Source: Candidatus Portnoybacteria bacterium
GTDB lineage: Bacteria > Patescibacteriota > Minisyncoccia > Portnoybacterales > GWB1-42-6
DNA length: 64,000 nucleotides
Direction of reading: 5' to 3'
Assembly (NCBI GenBank): GCA_028688325.1
Contig: JAQTYI010000001.1
Coordinates: forward strand, 168,820 to 232,819
Shown: piece after piece, positions 4,206 to 51,992 of the stretch
How the letters are laid out: every line of letters starts with the position of its first letter
Numbering within the stretch: the stretch's first letter is position 1
Notes under the pieces: model-generated
Seen by the model: the letters and a program-made list of their open reading frames with translations, nothing else
What the model was told of the DNA's origin: nothing
Databases searched by the model: none
Made by a program: the position numbers and the translations under genes

Positions 4206-4451
4206 TTAAAAGATATCTATCTTTCTTGCGGCCTTCTTGGCCCTGCTGCCTTCAAGCTGCCTCAGAAATGCTTCTATTTGGTCTAAGCGGTAAACTCTGT
4301 AGTTATTGCTTGGATGGCGGTATGCTTTCAACTTTCCCGCCTTATCCCAGTTGCGCAATGTCAAAGGAGTCACATGAAGAAGCTTTGCCGCATTATTTAT
4401 CATTAAATATTTCTGCATCTTTATTTTTTTCCGTTTTTTATTGATTATCAA
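4206..4451 (-). CDS. Small excisionase/MerR-like helix-turn-helix DNA-binding protein.
   Basis: The 81-aa ORF contains AAKLLHVTPLTLRNWDKAGKLKAYRHPSNNYRVYRLDQIEAFL, an HTH_17/excisionase-type motif. It sits inside the AT-rich non-coding block that carries DnaA boxes. Confidence 0.55.
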   Translation of the reverse strand: MIINKKRKKIKMQKYLMINNAAKLLHVTPLTLRNWDKAGKLKAYRHPSNNYRVYRLDQIEAFLRQLEGSRAKKAARKIDIF

Positions 4452-5623: not shown

Positions 5624-5727
5624 GGATAGCTCCGGCGCCGCGGTTGGATTATCTTCTTTTTATTTGCTATCATGCCTATGAAAGGCCGGATGAAAAATCC
5701 GCACTAAATGCATCCGGCGCAAAAATT

Positions 5728-6051
5728 ATGAAAAAGATAAAAAGGAATCCCGAAATCGCCTGGAGAGAAGAAGAAGAGATGAGAAATAAAGTGGAAGAGA
5801 TTTTAAAACAGGGAGGAGAAACAGAAGAAGTGAGCAAAAAAGGGACCGTAACGCTTGTTTACTCTGGAGCGATGCATCAGTTGAATCTCTTGGGAGGAGA
5901 AATCTGGAAGCTATGCGACGGAACTCGGACGGAGGAAGAAATCGGAGAAGAATTATTAAAAACATTCGATGCCGAACGGGATATTATCTTAAAAGATCTC
6001 AAAGAATTCATCCTGGACCTTCAAAATAAGAAATGGCTTTTTTATGAATAA
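5728..6051 (+). CDS. PqqD-family peptide chaperone (RiPP recognition element).
   Basis: The stretch VTLVYSGAMHQLNLLGGEIWKLCDGTRTEEEIGEELLKTFDAERDIILKDLKEFILDLQNKKWL matches the PqqD fold pattern. Its stop overlaps the start of the next gene (ATGAATAA). The track ORF begins at a TTG at 5644; the ATG at 5728 is preferred. Confidence 0.65.
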   Translation: MKKIKRNPEIAWREEEEMRNKVEEILKQGGETEEVSKKGTVTLVYSGAMHQLNLLGGEIWKLCDGTRTEEEIGEELLKTFDAERDIILKDLKEFILDLQNKKWLFYE

Positions 6052-7054
6052 AAACACTCCCGCCATGATGCCATTGGCGGCCAATTGGGCGCTAACCGTA
6101 AGATGCAATTTCAACTGCAACCACTGCTACTCTCGGACGGATAGCAGCCCCGAATTGGCTTTGAAAGAGATAAAAGTCATCGTTGACAAATTAGTCCGTT
6201 CCCGTGTTCTTTTTGTGAACTTTGGCGGAGGCGAACCGCTGCTGCGAAAAGACTTGTTTGAAATTGCAAACTACGCGAAACGCCGAGGATTGCACATCTC
6301 TATGAACTCGAACGGATCTTTAATAACGAAAGCGGCGGCGAAAAATATAAAAGAATCCGGTTTTCGCCAGGTCGGAATAAGCATGGATAGCCATCTGTCC
6401 GGGATACACGATAAATTCAGAAACGCTCCGGGAAGCCATAAAAAAGCGATCGCAGCAATAGGCCGCCTGAAAAAGGCCGGCATCGAAGTCAGCGTTTCAT
6501 CGGTGATATGCAAGATCAATCACACTAATTTCGAAAAGATCATCGCTCTCGCCAAGAAATTAAAAGTTAATAAGATAAATCTGCACAACTACAAGTGCGG
6601 CGGCCGGGAGTTCGCCAATCGCGACAACCTTGATCTGTCGCCAGAGGAATGGCGCGATTTTTACGGCAAAGTCCTCGAGATAAAAAGCCGAGAAAAAGAA
6701 ATGGATATTTCCCTGGACGACCCGATAATCGCCTCGCTGAAAAATACGGAAAATAAATCTTTGGTGCAAGGGAGCATCTGCGGAAAGCTGTCTTTTTATA
6801 TCAAGTCCAACGGAGATATGACTCCGTGCGGCTTCATTCCTACAAAGATAGGAAATATTCTGACGGACTCCTTTAAAGAAGCATGGGAGAGCTCGCCGAT
6901 ATTACATACAATGAGAAACAAAGAGCCGAAAGGCAAATGCAAGAAATGCAAATTTTTCACTTCTTGCATCGGAGGTTGCACCGCAAGGGCGTATGCCATA
7001 AGCGGCGACTTCAACTCACCTGACCCTCATTGCTGGTATGAGCCGAAAAATTAG
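6044..7054 (+). CDS. Radical SAM protein with a C-terminal SPASM domain (PqqE/MftC/AlbA-like peptide maturase).
   Basis: CNFNCNHC is the CxxxCxxC SAM-cluster motif. GGGEPLL is present. The C-terminus has the Cys-rich SPASM region CGKLSF...CGFIP...CKKCKFFTSCIGGCTARAY...CW. Confidence 0.85.
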   Translation: MNKNTPAMMPLAANWALTVRCNFNCNHCYSRTDSSPELALKEIKVIVDKLVRSRVLFVNFGGGEPLLRKDLFEIANYAKRRGLHISMNSNGSLITKAAAKNIKESGFRQVGISMDSHLSGIHDKFRNAPGSHKKAIAAIGRLKKAGIEVSVSSVICKINHTNFEKIIALAKKLKVNKINLHNYKCGGREFANRDNLDLSPEEWRDFYGKVLEIKSREKEMDISLDDPIIASLKNTENKSLVQGSICGKLSFYIKSNGDMTPCGFIPTKIGNILTDSFKEAWESSPILHTMRNKEPKGKCKKCKFFTSCIGGCTARAYAISGDFNSPDPHCWYEPKN

Positions 7055-7133
7055 GCGTTCGCCGATTTAATGACGCTGCGGTTGAAGAAAAAGGTCCCAT
7101 GGATTATAATATCAATGAAAGGAGGTGCGTTTT

Positions 7134-7193
7134 ATGAAGATAAAATATATTCAACCGAAAATAGTCGGGAGTTCCAGTATTCATCCTTGCTGA
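7134..7193 (+). CDS. Candidate 19-aa precursor peptide MKIKYIQPKIVGSSSIHPC.
   Basis: The ATG at 7134 is preceded by AAAGGAGGTG at a 7-nt spacing, a consensus Shine-Dalgarno. The ORF lies in the 163-nt gap between the two SPASM genes and ends with a single C-terminal Cys. There is no other support. Confidence 0.3.
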   Translation: MKIKYIQPKIVGSSSIHPC

Positions 7194-7217
7194 TGATATC
7201 CTGCTGAACGAACAATT

Positions 7218-8156
7218 ATGCCAATGAATTTGAGCGCGCCCATTCGGGTGTATTGGGATGTGCGCGCCGATATTAATACTGAAAAACCGGCAAGCGGCGC
7301 CGAAAAAACCGTTATCGCCATTTTGGAAAGATTAACGCGGGAAAAAATATTCTATTTATCGATTTCGGGATGGGAGAATATATCCTATGAGGCGTTGCGC
7401 GAAATGCTGCCCGGCTTGGATAAAAACGGCATCTCGGTCTCGTTGATGCTTTCGGGCGGAAAAACACTCCCCGAAAACGAATTACTTTTACACGCAAGTT
7501 ATGCAAAAGAATTCGTTTTTGAAATAGATTCTGAAAAAGATTTGACGAAGTTATCTTCGCTTCAGAAAATATTAAAAAAAACACCGGCAAGAATAAGCGT
7601 TTCCATATATCCGCATGAAGGAAATTACGGCCGAATCCCTTCGATCATCGAATATTACGCAAAAAATGGAGTCCAAAATTTCATTATTCCGGCTCCCGGG
7701 ATCGCCGACAAGTCCAAAATCTCCGCACGCGACCATTCCCTCAGGGAGAAAATAGCACGCGCTATTAACAGCTCCCCTTCCTCGCGGAACGGTACCCTGA
7801 ATTTTATCGTCCACGATCCCTTTTTGTGGAAGCTGCTCGACCCAAGGTGTTTTGAAAATAAAAAGATGACTTTTGAAGGATGCCAAGCGGCTGATTCGAT
7901 AGCTTATATTGATTTTAAGGGCGATGTCTTTCCCTGCTTGTTGCTGCCAATAAGATTGGGCAATCTGCTCCAAGACAGTTTAAAGGAAATATGGTCGTCG
8001 AAAGAAAGGAAAGCTGTCAGAAAAAAGATAGAAGACATTCCTGAAAATTGTAAAAAATGTTCCCGGCTCTCGGAATGCAACGGCGGGTGCAGGGGCTTAT
8101 CATTATTGATCAACAATAATATCTGTTCGAAAGACCCAACCTGTCCCGTTTGTTGA
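7218..8156 (+). CDS. SPASM-domain protein related to radical SAM enzymes but lacking the CxxxCxxC SAM-cluster motif (degenerate rSAM paralog).
   Basis: The C-terminus carries CQAADSIAYIDFKGDVFPC...CKKCSRLSECNGGCRG...CSKDPTCPVC, a 7-Cys SPASM-like motif. The N-terminal barrel region (VYWDVRADINTEK, LSISGWEN) has no Cys triad. Confidence 0.6.
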   Translation: MPMNLSAPIRVYWDVRADINTEKPASGAEKTVIAILERLTREKIFYLSISGWENISYEALREMLPGLDKNGISVSLMLSGGKTLPENELLLHASYAKEFVFEIDSEKDLTKLSSLQKILKKTPARISVSIYPHEGNYGRIPSIIEYYAKNGVQNFIIPAPGIADKSKISARDHSLREKIARAINSSPSSRNGTLNFIVHDPFLWKLLDPRCFENKKMTFEGCQAADSIAYIDFKGDVFPCLLLPIRLGNLLQDSLKEIWSSKERKAVRKKIEDIPENCKKCSRLSECNGGCRGLSLLINNNICSKDPTCPVC

Positions 8157-20405: not shown

Positions 20406-20546
20406 TTTTTTTAAGCATACCGGGCGCTAAAAAACACCGTAATTTGCGGTGTTTTTTAGCGCTGTTGTGCCGAGGGGGAGATTTGCCCCGTAGAAATTTG
20501 CCACGCAAATTAACGGGGTAAAAACTCCTCGTACAAAAAATAAACT

Positions 20547-20631: not shown

Positions 20632-20896
20632 GCACTTTGTGCGATTGCCAACTTGTCCCGTGATTGCGCAAAGCGCAATTTTACGGGATTTCGCCACCTC
20701 GGCCTCTTCTAAATTTAACCTTTTATGACCTCGAAAAGCAAGATGCTAAAGCCCCTGCCCCGTTAGAAGTTTTTAACTGGACGCTATTTTAGAACATGTA
20801 AAGCCGCCCACTTCGCTCTCGCTTCAACGAGGCGAGCAGGCGAAATCGCGCAGTTTTTTGGATAAAAACAGCATACAGAGGAACTTCTCTACGGGG

Positions 20897-20954: not shown

Positions 20955-21063
20955 CCCCCACACCCGATCCAGCAATATTTCCTGATTTTCAGAAAGGCAA
21001 GGCGAAGCCGTTTTACTTGGCTTGCGCGCCCTTGGAGGTGCATTATTTGATCGGGTGTGGGGG
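20955..21063 (+). ncRNA. 109-nt structured leader or small RNA closed by a perfect 15-bp stem.
   Basis: CCCCCACACCCGATC ... GATCGGGTGTGGGGG encloses about 80 nt that contain an internal imperfect hairpin. It lies just downstream of the consensus promoter and about 145 nt upstream of the SPFH gene. Confidence 0.4.
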
Positions 21064-21207
21064 TAAACCAAAATCGGATCTTGGACAGAACTTTAAAAAT
21101 CGAAAAGGGACATAATCCCCTTTCTCAACATATATACCAATTGAGTATGCACTTTTTAGTGCTCAAGAATATACAACTAAAATGATTATATTGAAAAAGG
21201 AGGAGTT

Positions 21208-23136: not shown

Positions 23137-23493
23137 TTAGTATCCTTGCGGACCTGACGGAATATTGGCATTGCCAACGCCGAAAGTATTAAGCAAGATA
23201 TTGACCAATCCCCACGCGCCAGCCATCACGGCCATGCCGACGATGCCCCAAATCATATGTTCCTTGCCCAATTTAAGCTTTGCGTCCTCGCCGCCGGCCG
23301 AAACATACTGCACGACGCCCCAGACGAAATATAAAGTGACCAGAACAAACAGAAGGCCAATCACTCCATTCAAGATGACTTTCAGTTGATTTATGGTTCC
23401 GGTCAGGTCAGAAGCGGCTAAAACCATCATAGGCATAAGCAATGTCGCAGAAACTATTGCCGCTTTCTCTAACATCTTTTCGATTTTTCTCAT
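23137..23493 (-). CDS. VirB2/TrbC-like pilin-family small membrane protein (paralog 1).
   Basis: Signal-like N-terminus, two hydrophobic segments, and the conserved LGKEHMIWGIVGMAVMAGAWGLV. AAAGGAGG sits 9 nt before the ATG. Confidence 0.5.
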   Translation of the reverse strand: MRKIEKMLEKAAIVSATLLMPMMVLAASDLTGTINQLKVILNGVIGLLFVLVTLYFVWGVVQYVSAGGEDAKLKLGKEHMIWGIVGMAVMAGAWGLVNILLNTFGVGNANIPSGPQGY

Positions 23494-23661
23494 TATGCTC
23501 ACCTCCTTTCGTTACCGCGGATTCTCGCTGATTTACACACGGATTCACGCGGATTTTTTATTAATTTTCAATTGTCCGTTTTCTAATTATCAATAATTTA
23601 AGAATTGATTGATAATTTGTGGCTGGTTGGTTCGGTGTTCTGTTCCTCTTGGTTCCGCGGT

Positions 23662-24438
23662 TTATGCGAAATAAAGCTGTATCATCTGCACTATCCCCCA
23701 GGCGCCGAGCATCACGGCCATGCCGATGATTCCCCAAATCATATGCCTTTTGCCTTCTTCCAATTTTGCTGATTCTCCGCTGGCGCTATAGCGCACATAC
23801 TCTGCCACTCCCCAGAAAAAATAGACCGTCACCAGAATAAAAAGCAAACCAATAATCTGATTCAATGTGTCTTTGATTTTTGCCACCAGCGCACTGCCTT
23901 GGCCAGAGCCGCCGCCCAAAATATCCGTGATATAAGTGACTATCGCCTGGCTGGCCATGATAACCGCGATGCCCGCGATGGTCCAAATAAAATTTTTCTT
24001 GGCCGCGGTTAATTTGTTTTCATTTCCTTGCGCCGTGGCAAATTGGAAACCCGCCCAGATAAGCATGAACACCGCAAAAATTGTCGCCAAAGGAATCAGA
24101 AAATTGATGATCTTAATAATGAGTTCACTGACGCTTTTGGCGCCGATAAAATTGGGCAAACTGACGCTATTCGGGCCGGGAGCATAGTTGCCGGCATTTA
24201 AGGGCTCGGCTGAGGGCAAAGCCGCATTTCCCGCTCCGGCGCCATAGCTATTTAAAAAACAATTGCCCTGGCCCGTATCAGGATCCGTTATGCAACTTTC
24301 CCCGCTTGGACAAGAAGAATCACCATATCCCCCGCAACTTTGTCCGCTGCTGGTCGCCGCCAATCCCGCTTCCGCCAAAACAAAAAACCCGCCGATCATT
24401 AAAAAAGCGATAAAAAATGTTTTATATGATTTTTGCAT
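23662..24438 (-). CDS. VirB2/TrbC-like pilin-family protein with an internal domain duplication and a Cys/Gly-rich N-terminal region (paralog 2).
   Basis: The C-terminal 100 aa is about 60% identical to paralog 1. An internal repeat reads IINFLIPLATIFAVFMLIWAGFQF. GGAGG precedes the start. Confidence 0.5.
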   Translation of the reverse strand: MQKSYKTFFIAFLMIGGFFVLAEAGLAATSSGQSCGGYGDSSCPSGESCITDPDTGQGNCFLNSYGAGAGNAALPSAEPLNAGNYAPGPNSVSLPNFIGAKSVSELIIKIINFLIPLATIFAVFMLIWAGFQFATAQGNENKLTAAKKNFIWTIAGIAVIMASQAIVTYITDILGGGSGQGSALVAKIKDTLNQIIGLLFILVTVYFFWGVAEYVRYSASGESAKLEEGKRHMIWGIIGMAVMLGAWGIVQMIQLYFA

Positions 24439-24522
24439 TTATTTCTCCTCCCTTTTTAAAGGGAGGCAGGGAGGGATTTTAATCCCTCTTAATCCTCCTT
24501 TGCACAGGAGGAAAATTATAAT

Positions 24523-24924
24523 TTATCTGCAATTGACCGTCCACCAGTTGCCCGGAACAAATCCCGCGACGCTGGTGCCGAAAGTCGTAATCAAGGTGTT
24601 TACGATGGCCCAAGAAGCCAAAACTATCAAAACGCCGATAGCGGTGCTCTTGAATGTGTCTTTGCCTTTTTTATAACGCGTTTCGTCCCCTCCCGCCCAT
24701 ATCATCATTATACCACCAATCAAAAAAAGCAGTCCAGCCAGTGGCGCTGTCACATCGCGCACTAAAAACATCACGATATTGCTGATGAGCTGCAAAAAAT
24801 TACAGGGAGTGCAGCTGGCGCCCCGGCAAGCAGGCACCAAGGCGGCATAGACGGGCCAGGCGGCCAATAGCGAATAGCCAATAGCGAATAACCCGACAAA
24901 TTTATTAAAATTAATTTTCATCAT
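24523..24924 (-). CDS. VirB2/TrbC-like pilin-family protein (paralog 3).
   Basis: LAGLLFLIGGIMMIWAGGDETRYKKGKDTFKSTAIGVLIVLASWAIV is the same architecture. Confidence 0.45.
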   Translation of the reverse strand: MMKINFNKFVGLFAIGYSLLAAWPVYAALVPACRGASCTPCNFLQLISNIVMFLVRDVTAPLAGLLFLIGGIMMIWAGGDETRYKKGKDTFKSTAIGVLIVLASWAIVNTLITTFGTSVAGFVPGNWWTVNCR

Positions 24925-35444: not shown

Positions 35445-35472
35445 TTAACTCAACTTTGACCCGCTATCTTTT

Positions 35473-35544
35473 GGGCGTGTAGCTCAATGGTAGAGCACGA
35501 AGCTTATACCTTCGCGGTTCTAGGTTCGAATCCTAGCGCGCCCA
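35473..35544 (+). tRNA. tRNA with anticodon TAT (Ile-UAU type), flanked by a perfect 15-bp leader/trailer inverted repeat.
   Basis: Acceptor stem GGGCGTG/CGCGCCC, anticodon stem-loop CGAAG-CTTATAC-CTTCG, T-loop TTCGAAT. The flanks are GACCCGCTATCTTTT and AAAAGATAGCGGGTC. Confidence 0.6.
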
Positions 35545-35774
35545 CCCCAAAAGATAGCGGGTCAAAGCATAGCGCTGGTTCTGGGCCCGCCCTGTTAGAA
35601 ATTATTGAATAGCTTATTTTCACGCTAAAATTTATTCTGGAAATAGCTTGTTTTATTAGATTAGAAATTACTTTATAATTTCTAACAGGGTGAAAATCAT
35701 AGCGCGCGCACCGCGTAAAACCCCGCCTTAGCGGGGTCACGCAGCGCAGCCCCGTAAAAAATTAACAAAAATTT

Positions 35775-38802: not shown

Positions 38803-38884
38803 GCAGCCCCAAACTAATTGGGCGTAGCGCCGAAAATAATTTGTTATCGCCCTGGCGGGCTTGCCCGCCGAAGCTTTAGCGCAG

Positions 38885-44448: not shown

Positions 44449-44623
44449 GGAACTCTTTTGCTACTTTTCTGGTTACAGAAAAGTAGATGAGATAATACTA
44501 TGCGAATTGAACCTGGATTCCCGCTTTCGCGGGAATGACAAATCAAGCTATAAACTATACCAAGAAGCTCACCATCAACCCCGTAAAATCCCGCTACGCG
44601 GGACCACGGGGCAAGCAACGCCG

Positions 44624-51616: not shown

Positions 51617-51838
51617 TGGTCGGGCCGCGGGGACTCGAACCCCGACTAAATCCCCCCGCCCCGCACCAAAAATTTACTGTCGGGGCACTGGGAATTGAAC
51701 CCAGTCTACATCCTCCCGAAGGATGCGTACTACCGGTATACGATGCCCCGGTGATTTTGGTGCGGGGTAAAAAGGACTCGCCTGCCCCGTTGTCGCCAAG
51801 GGCGACTTTTCGGGGTGCTACCATTACACTACGGCCCG
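51617..51838 (-). other. Split tRNA-like sequence: a tRNA 5' half (acceptor and D arm) and a tRNA 3' half (T arm, acceptor, CCA) whose acceptor strands pair with each other, separated by about 170 nt that contain a complete tRNA-Pro.
   Basis: The 5' part, CGGGCCGTAGTGTAATGGTAGCAC, lies at 51815..51838 on the minus strand. The 3' part, GTCGGGGTTCGAGTCCCCGCGGCCCGACCA, lies at 51617..51646. The acceptor strands CGGGCCG and CGGCCCG are complementary. Confidence 0.4.
51680..51750 (-). tRNA. tRNA-Pro (anticodon CGG), flanked by a 14-bp leader/trailer stem.
   Basis: Acceptor stem CGGGGCA/TGCCCCG with the C1:G72 pair, anticodon stem-loop CATCC-TTCGGGA-GGATG, T-loop TTCAATT. The flanks are CCCCGCACCAAAAT and ATTTTGGTGCGGGG. 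Confidence 0.75.
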
Positions 51839-51992
51839 ATAACTTATTTACCCTGAGTTCATCGAAGGGCTTCTCCTATTTCATCATAAATCCATAAAAA
51901 AATCAACTATTGACAAATATATTAATAAGATGTATTCTTATTAATATTCCGAGTAGTTCATTTTAGCCATTATTCAGAAAAGGAGGAAGTAT

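Follow-up and report, generated by a model that had tools for sequence, protein, structure and literature searches.

A complete proline tRNA gene inside an apparently interrupted proline tRNA gene of a Portnoybacteria genome, and an associated family of palindromic elements

Integrase-borne islands and plasmids residing in transfer RNA (tRNA) genes show sublocation preferences for the anticodon loop and the T loop, and small palindromic, non-autonomous repeats are represented in bacteria by repetitive extragenic palindromic (REP) sequences and bacterial interspersed mosaic elements (BIMEs), miniature inverted-repeat transposable elements (MITEs), Correia elements and Rickettsia palindromic elements. 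Described systems that involve tRNA genes further include an archaeal arrangement of tRNA-Thr fragment, recombinase element and tRNA (PMC3293823), the GIY-YIG enzyme SegB of phage T4, which drives inheritance of the phage tRNA region (PMC2330249), group I introns found within Patescibacteria tRNA genes (PMC13011429), and the intron-containing, multi-intron and split tRNA genes of archaea with their bulge-helix-bulge introns (PMC4390854, PMC4090602). Elements that target tRNA genes and bring a replacement, links between GIY-YIG enzymes and tRNA genes, small palindromic repeats and group I introns of Patescibacteria are therefore already known. Here we analyze a 64,000-nt stretch (the window) of the genome of a Candidatus Portnoybacteria bacterium (GenBank assembly GCA_028688325.1, contig JAQTYI010000001.1, positions 168,820 to 232,819), on whose minus strand, from 51838 to 51617, a full tRNA-Pro(CGG) is enclosed by the two halves of a second tRNA-Pro gene. 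We know of no case in which a complete same-isotype tRNA lies inside a tRNA intervening sequence, and full-text literature searches on nested or interrupted tRNA genes of bacteria and on palindromic elements with tRNA cargo found no description of a whole tRNA gene borne by a hairpin element of about 110 nt within the loops of a same-isotype tRNA. With a probability of roughly 0.65, we attribute the nest to insertion at the DNA level that brought a replacement tRNA and left the outer copy as a young pseudogene.

The nested tRNA-Pro genes

At the level of sequence, comparison with homologous genes shows that the outer tRNA-Pro(CGG), here called type A, is interrupted by two members of a dispersed palindromic family, one of which holds a complete inner-type (type B) tRNA-Pro(CGG). 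All sequence elements listed in a preliminary description, made from the letters of the region alone, are present where it placed them on the minus strand, and its call of a canonical inner tRNA-Pro(CGG) agrees with both ARAGORN (tRNA-Pro(cgg), 51679-51750) and the Rfam tRNA model RF00005 (54.1 bits at 51680-51750; threshold 29). The same gene scores 77.5 bits against a lineage-specific covariance model. By inspection it is identical at 71/71 positions to the stand-alone tRNA-Pro at the syntenic locus of L028 and L033 and to the inner copies of L031, L034 and L035, where labels of this kind denote comparison loci from NCBI, ENA, JGI and Logan assemblies.

As it stands, the outer gene forms no continuous cloverleaf and escapes both ARAGORN and Rfam. 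A covariance model trained on 15 intact tRNA-Pro homologues recovers the outer gene as two separate matches, the 3' part at 51620-51663 (31.2 bits, E 5.5e-8) and the 5' part at 51778-51838 (17.6 bits, E 2e-4), so that the outer halves do score as pieces of a tRNA-Pro. The 24-nt outer 5' half CGGGCCGTAGTGTAATGGTAGCAC, comprising piece 1 of Table 1 and the following C, recurs exactly in uninterrupted tRNA-Pro genes of 12 species representatives (Wolfe-, Nomura-, Jorgensen- and Harrisonbacteria, Paceibacterota, and metagenome-assembled genomes labelled Saccharibacteria), with anticodons TGG, CGG or GGG; intact homologues occur at the syntenic locus as well, as the preliminary description had suggested looking for. 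By sequence homology, the outer gene is thus confirmed as a true tRNA-Pro homologue. Intact homologues read GCAC G AGTCC TTCGGGA GGATT, and the anticodon arm that the preliminary description had found missing from the outer pieces is present, split by the large insert between U33 and C34 (AGTCC-TT/CGGGG-GGATT). When both inserts are cut out in silico, ARAGORN reports a 74-nt canonical tRNA-Pro(cgg) with all stems paired and the CCA included, joined as ...GGTAGCA/CGAGTCCTT/CGGGGGGATT..., where slashes mark the junctions. This joined gene differs from its closest intact homologues at 3/71 positions, one of them G38, a site at which A or U stands in each of the 15 intact homologues.

Insert 1 lies in the 3' strand of the D stem. 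Its CCCCG...CGGGG stem and hairpin had been seen before; what had been missed is that they constitute a separate insert, 35 nt long, at the end of the D stem. Its ends are those of the larger elements described below, the tail is CAGG, and it belongs to a related REP-like set. The same motif occupies the same tRNA position in L026, L034, L035 and L008, where changes in the hairpin are compensatory; it is present in the window and in L034 and absent from the same gene in L031. Insert 2 contains no open reading frame (ORF) and has inverted, not direct, repeats. Its arms of 14-15 bp, free of mismatches in the outer 12 nt in the element scan, resemble those in L012, L031 and L008. The element is inverted relative to the tRNAs, its tail TAAA being on the plus strand and the tRNAs on the minus strand, and excision by the rule that holds for the family yields the 7-nt loop TTCGGGG.

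The 241-nt region is predicted to fold into an acceptor stem, a D arm, a hairpin, a long helix around the inner cloverleaf and a T arm, at -110.1 kcal/mol (z = -4.98), and none of 200 shuffled sequences was as stable. The window derives from a metagenome-assembled genome, which invites the thought of an assembly or binning chimera. However, the junction running from inner tRNA through 3' arm to outer 3' half is identical in L003, an independent Logan assembly from a different sequencing run, and is therefore no assembly artefact; comparable nests were also recovered separately from NCBI, ENA, JGI and Logan data (L017-19, L026/27, L031/32, L008/L016), so that a chimera has a negligible chance of being the explanation. 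Other window genes that were checked are ordinary chromosomal genes of Patescibacteria (gyrA, RNase Y, ClpP, trigger factor, LeuRS and NusA). A near-identical copy (TTGATTTTTTAGCGGAAATATGATGAAAT) of the promoter-like motif upstream of the nest precedes the tRNA-Pro locus in L020, L023, L028, L029, L031, L033 and L034, and the motif probably acts as the promoter of the locus. A generic promoter and terminator scan, otherwise uninformative, did not flag it. In the syntenic loci of relatives the motif is kept nearly base for base, whichever tRNA or remnant stands first.

Nested and plain forms, and every state in between, occur among relatives at the syntenic locus, defined as the region upstream of homologues of the adjacent 193-aa gene. 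Type A stands alone in L020 and L023-25 and type B alone in L028 and L033. B lies inside A in the window and in L031/32, the latter without insert 1 and with a deletion between two CCCGAC repeats that took away the 3' arm and the outer 3' half. The closest relative, L034 (80% protein identity), retains nothing beyond the 5' piece of A, insert 1 and a complete B, while L035 has an A remnant, a B remnant and then a full B. The reverse nesting, A inside B, is found in L026/27, whose outer gene has three inserts (D stem, position 35/36 and T loop), and in L017-19, with inserts at 10/11 and 35/36 and one of about 300 nt in the T arm; L029/30 has a B 5' remnant followed by a full A. In L012 (Harrisonbacteria), a type B-like gene is split at 35/36 by an arm-flanked type A gene. 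Three tRNA-Pro genes are nested in one another in L008 and L016, the outermost carrying an insert of the 35-nt type. These triple nests lie at L008:4640-4919 and L016:2190-2499; the acceptor stem of the outermost gene is decayed and its D-stem insert holds an extra hairpin, and L016 has other sequence in place of the 3' arm that follows the innermost gene in L008. At L006:5515-5800 and L015:1512-1900, 100-300 nt of unrelated sequence is enclosed by directly repeated copies of the tRNA-Pro 3' end with its downstream flank, the classical mark of integration at a tRNA gene's 3' end.

A family of palindromic elements

Larger inserts begin with CCCC(G) and end with (C)GGGG and a one-sided tail of 4 nt, T[G/A]AA; one and the same end, CCCCGTTAGA...TCTAACGGGGTRAA, recurs in elements whose interiors are unrelated, the left flank usually ends in YG, and the two ends pair with each other instead of forming separate hairpins. 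Palindromic elements of this kind are frequent in this Portnoybacteria/Patescibacteria lineage. Their orientation to the host tRNA varies, being inverted in insert 2 of the window and in an Ala case described below and co-oriented in the inserts of L008, L012, L017 and L026, and related elements lie outside tRNA genes (window 20955-21067, L011 and L017:160-259). The cargo may be a tRNA, an ORF for a GIY-YIG nuclease, or nothing. Excision according to the family ends gives back anticodon or T loops of 7 nt, or the D stem; none of the junctions examined has a target-site duplication, and excision restores the tRNA exactly. No Rfam family matches the inserts, either in the window region (to E = 10) or in L008, L012, L017 and L026 (to E = 1); at these permissive thresholds the region and the four related loci gave only the tRNA matches of inner genes. 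The preliminary description had noted that tRNA-Ser(TGA) and tRNA-Ile(TAT) are bracketed by helices similar to those of the nest, which they are. Leader/trailer helices of at least 12 bp flank 8 of the 66 tRNAs scanned, and seven of these eight are cargo tRNAs, the other being the tRNA-Phe of L006 (12 bp). Since long helices are confined mainly to cargo tRNAs, they are the arms of elements and not a general feature of tRNA precursors here.

The REP-like set to which insert 1 belongs has the form CCCCG-TAAAA-stem-loop-stem-CA-CGGGG with tail CAGG or CAAG. Dispersed hairpins of this type in the window have conserved ends and centres that differ yet are always self-complementary, and several adjoin tRNA genes. 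A leader motif, GGCGGGCTTGCCCGCC-GAAGCTTTAGCG-(C/A)AGG, recurs in different genomes directly before the 5' end of several tRNA genes; copies are found in the window at 38854-38884 (+) and, in L010 and L012, just 5' of tRNA-Pro. A metagenome scan with the insert-1 motif, a narrow query, returned only a near-copy of L008.

Nests of other isotypes were also detected, and in every nest found the cargo isotype equals that of the host. At L023:3916-4110 and L031:~4245-4440, tRNA-Ala(CGC) is nested by means of an inverted element at 33/34 of a gene of Ala identity (G3:U70) whose anticodon loop reads TTCGAGT and T loop TCCGATT, the anticodon being mutated and U55 changed to C. L020 has a plain tRNA-Ala(CGC) at a similar distance downstream of the homologous gene. 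In the window, a complete tRNA-Ser(TGA) lies inside a Ser-like gene without a T arm; the junctions of this Ser nest give no clean fit to the excision rule, and the tail reads TAAC or CGTGAA. The tRNA-Ile(TAT), whose anticodon is rare in bacteria, is followed directly by a decayed Val-like 3' remnant, and the 105-nt element in the T loop of that remnant is homologous to the T-loop insert of L026. A screen in which every CCC...GGG hairpin was cut with variable end trimming and ARAGORN was rerun (12,516 constructs) gave matches across an internal junction only for the nests of L012 and L023/L031; the other matches checked proved to be tRNAs already present, the junction falling at one end. No hairpin-interrupted tRNA without an intact copy nearby was found in this screen, and in the sample each interrupted tRNA is accompanied, internally or at its side, by an intact tRNA of the same isotype.

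In L017, the insert in the T arm of the outer gene, bounded by CCCC...GGGG, has as its cargo an 86-aa GIY-YIG nuclease ORF (Pfam E 1.5e-15), and two homologous ORFs in the window adjoin a duplicate of a tRNA-Glu 5' half and the Ser-like remnant. The Glu region looks like another tRNA gene that was broken in the anticodon loop and then replaced. Against NCBIfam, the GIY-YIG ORFs have only sub-threshold likeness to group I intron endonucleases. We suspect the small GIY-YIG nuclease as the leading candidate for element mobility, acting through triggered break repair; single-strand hairpin transposition of the IS200/REP type is also suspected, and no Y1 (HUH) transposase is present among the 40 window ORFs. 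Elsewhere in the window, a PqqD-like protein and two radical SAM/SPASM proteins (5644-8153) probably form a peptide-modification cluster; at 23140-24924 lie three type IV secretion pilin-like genes in tandem.

Table 1. Positions of the nested tRNA-Pro locus and of related features in the window.
Feature	Position	Strand	Site or basis
Outer piece 1: acceptor 5' strand CGGGCCG, U8 A9, D stem and loop to A24 (23 nt)	51816..51838	-	
Outer piece 2: C25, G26, anticodon-stem 5' strand AGTCC, U32 U33	51772..51780	-	Homology to intact genes
Outer piece 3, anticodon part: C34 G35 G36 G37 G38, stem 3' strand GGATT	within 51617..51658	-	
Outer piece 3, rest: TAGT variable loop, CGGGG-TTCGAGT-CCCCG T arm, CGGCCCG, A73, encoded CCA	within 51617..51658	-	
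Insert 1: 35-nt REP-like hairpin, CCCCG-AAAA-GTCGCC-CTT-GGCGAC-AA-CGGGG + CAGG	51781..51815	-	Between A24 and C25
Insert 2: 113-nt palindromic element, CCCCGCACCAAAAAT...GGTGCGGGG-TAAA	51659..51771	+ (polarity)	Between U33 and C34
Insert 2 arms	51754-51768 and 51659-51673		
Inner gene: complete tRNA-Pro(CGG), type B, no encoded CCA	51680..51750	-	ARAGORN, Rfam
Promoter-like motif TTGATT - 17 nt - TGAAAT	51878..51906	-	About 40 nt upstream of outer 5' end
Dispersed REP-like hairpins, CCCCG-TA(A/G)AA-stem-loop-stem-(C)A-CGGGG + 4-nt tail	44579-44615; 9554-9590; 20652-20688; 20486-20522	+; -; -; +	
Palindromic element CCCCCACACCCGATC...GATCGGGTGTGGGGG-TAAA, 113 nt, 16-bp arms, no tRNA or ORF inside	20955-21067	+	
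Ser region	8226-8842	-	Order: tRNA-Ser(GCT), small hairpin, GIY-YIG ORF, Ser-like remnant, Ser nest
Ser region: GIY-YIG ORF	8705-8478	-	Between tRNA-Ser(GCT) and Ser nest, adjoining Ser-like 3' remnant
Ser region: decayed Ser-like 3' remnant	8444-8422	-	
Ser nest: Ser-like 5' half	8411-8377	-	
Ser nest: arm-flanked complete tRNA-Ser(TGA)	8376-8261	-	
Ser nest: outer anticodon 3' strand and variable arm	8260-8226	-	Terminator hairpin in place of T arm
Glu region: exact 35-nt duplicate of tRNA-Glu(TTC) 5' half	15520-15486	-	
Glu region: small CCC...GGG hairpin, TGAA tail	15486-15459	-	
Glu region: GIY-YIG ORF	15443-15258	-	Between 5'-half duplicate and full tRNA-Glu
Glu region: complete tRNA-Glu	15191-15119	-	
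tRNA-Ile(TAT) between 19-bp arms	35454-35472 and 35549-35567 (region 35454-35712)	+	
105-nt palindromic element in T loop of Val-like tRNA 3' remnant	35590-35694	+	Remnant directly after tRNA-Ile(TAT)

Insertion and replacement weighed against other explanations

If the nest arose by insertion into DNA, a hairpin repeat (insert 1) would have lodged at the end of the D stem of a type-A gene, and an element bearing type-B tRNA-Pro(CGG) between inverted terminal arms (insert 2) would have landed between U33 and C34. Transcription would begin at the conserved upstream promoter, the two arms would pair to give the leader/trailer helix, the inner tRNA would be freed by ordinary 5' and 3' tRNA processing, and the outer pieces would be discarded as leader and trailer. 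The insertion would be tolerated because the cargo tRNA replaces the function that is destroyed; once the cargo had taken over, the outer copy would be free to decay, and in the window it is probably already non-functional. Of the two alternatives in the preliminary description, a Pro-type gene interrupted in the anticodon region by a tRNA-bearing element is the one borne out, as intact homologues exist and the insert is a member of a family. Replacement is further supported by the inverted orientation of insert 2, which is hard to square with an RNA splicing signal, and by signs that outer copies have decayed in relatives: L031 and L034 have lost the outer 3' half, the outer gene of L017 has acceptor-stem mismatches, that of L012 has a C5-A68 mismatch and A33, and the outer Ala gene of L023 and L031 is mutated in its anticodon and T loops. 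The outer Ser gene of the window, which is without a T arm, agrees with this.

Several observations weigh against this explanation. The outer gene of the window is perfect in its four stems, its conserved D- and T-loop bases and its encoded CCA, G38 being the sole oddity, and that of L026 is fully intact once its three inserts are removed. The outer anticodon is UGG in L017 and L026, where the inner one is CGG; if these genomes had no other UGG gene, the outer copy there would be indispensable. The argument from orientation rests on a 4-nt tail and on the need to restore a 7-nt loop, and sequence integrity is a weak guide to function because a 23-nt type-A 5' fragment is identical (23/23) even in the dead remnants of L034 and L035, where the adjoining insert 1 diverges. 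No transposase was found among the 40 window ORFs compared with Pfam.

Two described intron classes were considered and rejected. The 5' exon of a group I intron ends in a U paired with G, and the intron itself ends in G; the inserts were rejected as group I introns on their size of 35-115 nt, the lack of a P3-P9 catalytic core and their end nucleotides, since sense-oriented copies read CTTG/CCCC...GGGGTGAA/GGA, with G as the last base of the 5' exon and A as that of the insert. Archaeal-type bulge-helix-bulge motifs have two 3-nt bulges that hold the splice sites, with a 4-bp helix between them. By inspection the inserts have no symmetric bulges in 3-4-3 geometry, one junction lying at the foot of the long helix and the other 4 nt beyond it, and this class was likewise rejected.

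The other alternative of the preliminary description, a split tRNA, or one with an intron, that is processed by way of the flanking helices, can be recast as a proposal that the hairpin inserts are new bacterial tRNA introns, removed by an endonuclease and an RtcB-type ligase or by self-processing, such that one transcript yields both tRNA-Pro. One simple excision rule restores 7-nt anticodon or T loops and the D stem in the window, L026 and L012, and the outer genes of the window and L026 keep all their stems. Inserts also pile up in one gene as homing introns do, three each in L026 and L017, in these two loci the outer anticodon (UGG) differs from the inner one (CGG), and Patescibacteria are known for many tRNA and rRNA introns (PMC13011429). 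Nevertheless, no Rfam model, those for group I introns and self-cleaving ribozymes included, matches the inserts, bulge-helix-bulge geometry could not be fitted at the junctions, and the occurrence of one element type in both orientations to the host tRNA would make the RNA substrates differ. Outer copies are truncated or mutated in L031, L034, L029, L035, L023 and the Ser locus of the window, and the same-isotype intact copy that accompanies each interrupted tRNA sampled also speaks against splicing. Comparison of the 40 window ORFs with Pfam revealed only housekeeping genes and no ligase or EndA-family splicing endonuclease, and to our knowledge no splicing endonuclease is known for this bacterial group. 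We accordingly regard introns of a new kind as quite improbable, and give as little credence to the broader proposition that CCCC...GGGG hairpins are a third class of bacterial tRNA intervening sequence, cut and ligated through a protein- or structure-dependent pathway.

About equally unlikely is that no dedicated mobile element was involved and that paralogous tRNA-Pro genes underwent illegitimate or homologous recombination, for instance during repair of a double-strand break made by a free-standing GIY-YIG homing endonuclease, with the arms as incidental flanks that were copied with the incoming gene. GIY-YIG ORFs do lie beside partial tRNA duplicates (Glu, 15520-15119; Ser, 8705-8226), and T4 SegB is a precedent for an enzyme of this family driving inheritance of a tRNA region (PMC2330249). 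Some outer genes are chimeric, that of L017 having a type-A 3' end on a type-B body and that of L026 a replaced 5' arm, and the constant match of cargo and host isotype would be expected of homology-driven repair. Such repair would not, however, account for the sharp CCCC...GGGG-and-tail boundaries, which persist despite unrelated interiors, different tRNA positions and non-tRNA DNA, nor for arms that are much alike around different types of cargo (window and L012), and the 113-nt element encodes no nuclease. Very unlikely, finally, is a functional structured RNA in which the outer halves act as a scaffold or as processing handles (e.g. for RNase P or RNase III) for the inner tRNA. The strong and specific fold, the promoter-like motif conserved upstream of the whole unit and the preservation of the type-A 5' fragment beside a diverging insert 1 would fit this idea, but the same inner tRNA exists in L028 and L033 with no outer pieces, and in L031 and L034 with no more of them than a 5' stub, so that the outer 3' half and the helix are dispensable. 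Insertion of an element that brings its own replacement tRNA thus remains the explanation that we prefer.

Significance and comparison with known systems

If this explanation is right, the elements follow a compact selfish-DNA survival strategy suited to very small genomes, in which an element of about 110 nt can land in a gene of an essential class because it carries a working copy of that gene; the outcome would be nested genes and a locus where two types of tRNA-Pro keep replacing each other. In addition, the locus is a bacterial test case for the long-standing proposal that tRNA genes become interrupted or split as a side effect of mobile elements that target them. Outer copies, fragments and hairpins are missed by standard tools, and counts of tRNA genes in Patescibacteria, along with claims of "missing tRNA", could be affected. 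For the minority reading of splicing, each exon and junction, as well as the product to be expected, can now be given at nucleotide resolution; were a third intron class real, co-transcribed tRNA-in-intron units would produce two functional proline tRNAs, or three in L008.

The closest intron systems share several traits with the nest. Group I introns of Patescibacteria occur in the same phylum and at anticodon-loop sites that include 33/34 and 35/36, in host genes that standard annotation misses, but they are 200 nt or more in length (PMC13011429), whereas the inserts measure 35-115 nt, have no core and match no Rfam family, end in A instead of G in sense-oriented copies, and also occur inverted to the host gene. 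As in archaeal multi-intron tRNAs, there are several interruptions, at non-canonical sites in the D stem, the anticodon loop and the T loop, and the exons rejoin on paper to a canonical tRNA; the host here is bacterial, and no bulge-helix-bulge motif was found in the inserts. With GIY-YIG homing endonucleases the locus has in common the association of the ORF with tRNA genes, and partial duplications and chimeric flanks are consistent with break repair and co-conversion. The putative nuclease ORFs differ in their length of about 85 aa, which covers the catalytic domain only, and the 113-nt element has no ORF.

Like REP- and MITE-type repeats, the elements are short and dispersed, have inverted ends that form hairpins, lie both in and between genes and have no coding capacity of their own. 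Of the features by which MITEs are recognized, terminal inverted repeats and multiple copies with presence/absence are found and a target-site duplication is not. The elements differ from such repeats also in the asymmetric 4-nt tail, in a marked preference for tRNA loops, and in carrying a tRNA gene or GIY-YIG ORF in the tip of the hairpin. With integrase-borne islands they share the tRNA gene as a target, sites in the anticodon and T loops, the supply of a working copy and the fragments of the old gene that are left behind. Yet these elements are only about 110 nt in length, have no integrase and are bounded by inverted, not direct, repeats. An integrase island provides a replacement 3' segment, giving the order tRNA, island and 3' fragment, while the palindromic element brings a whole tRNA and sits inside the old gene, which results in a nest.

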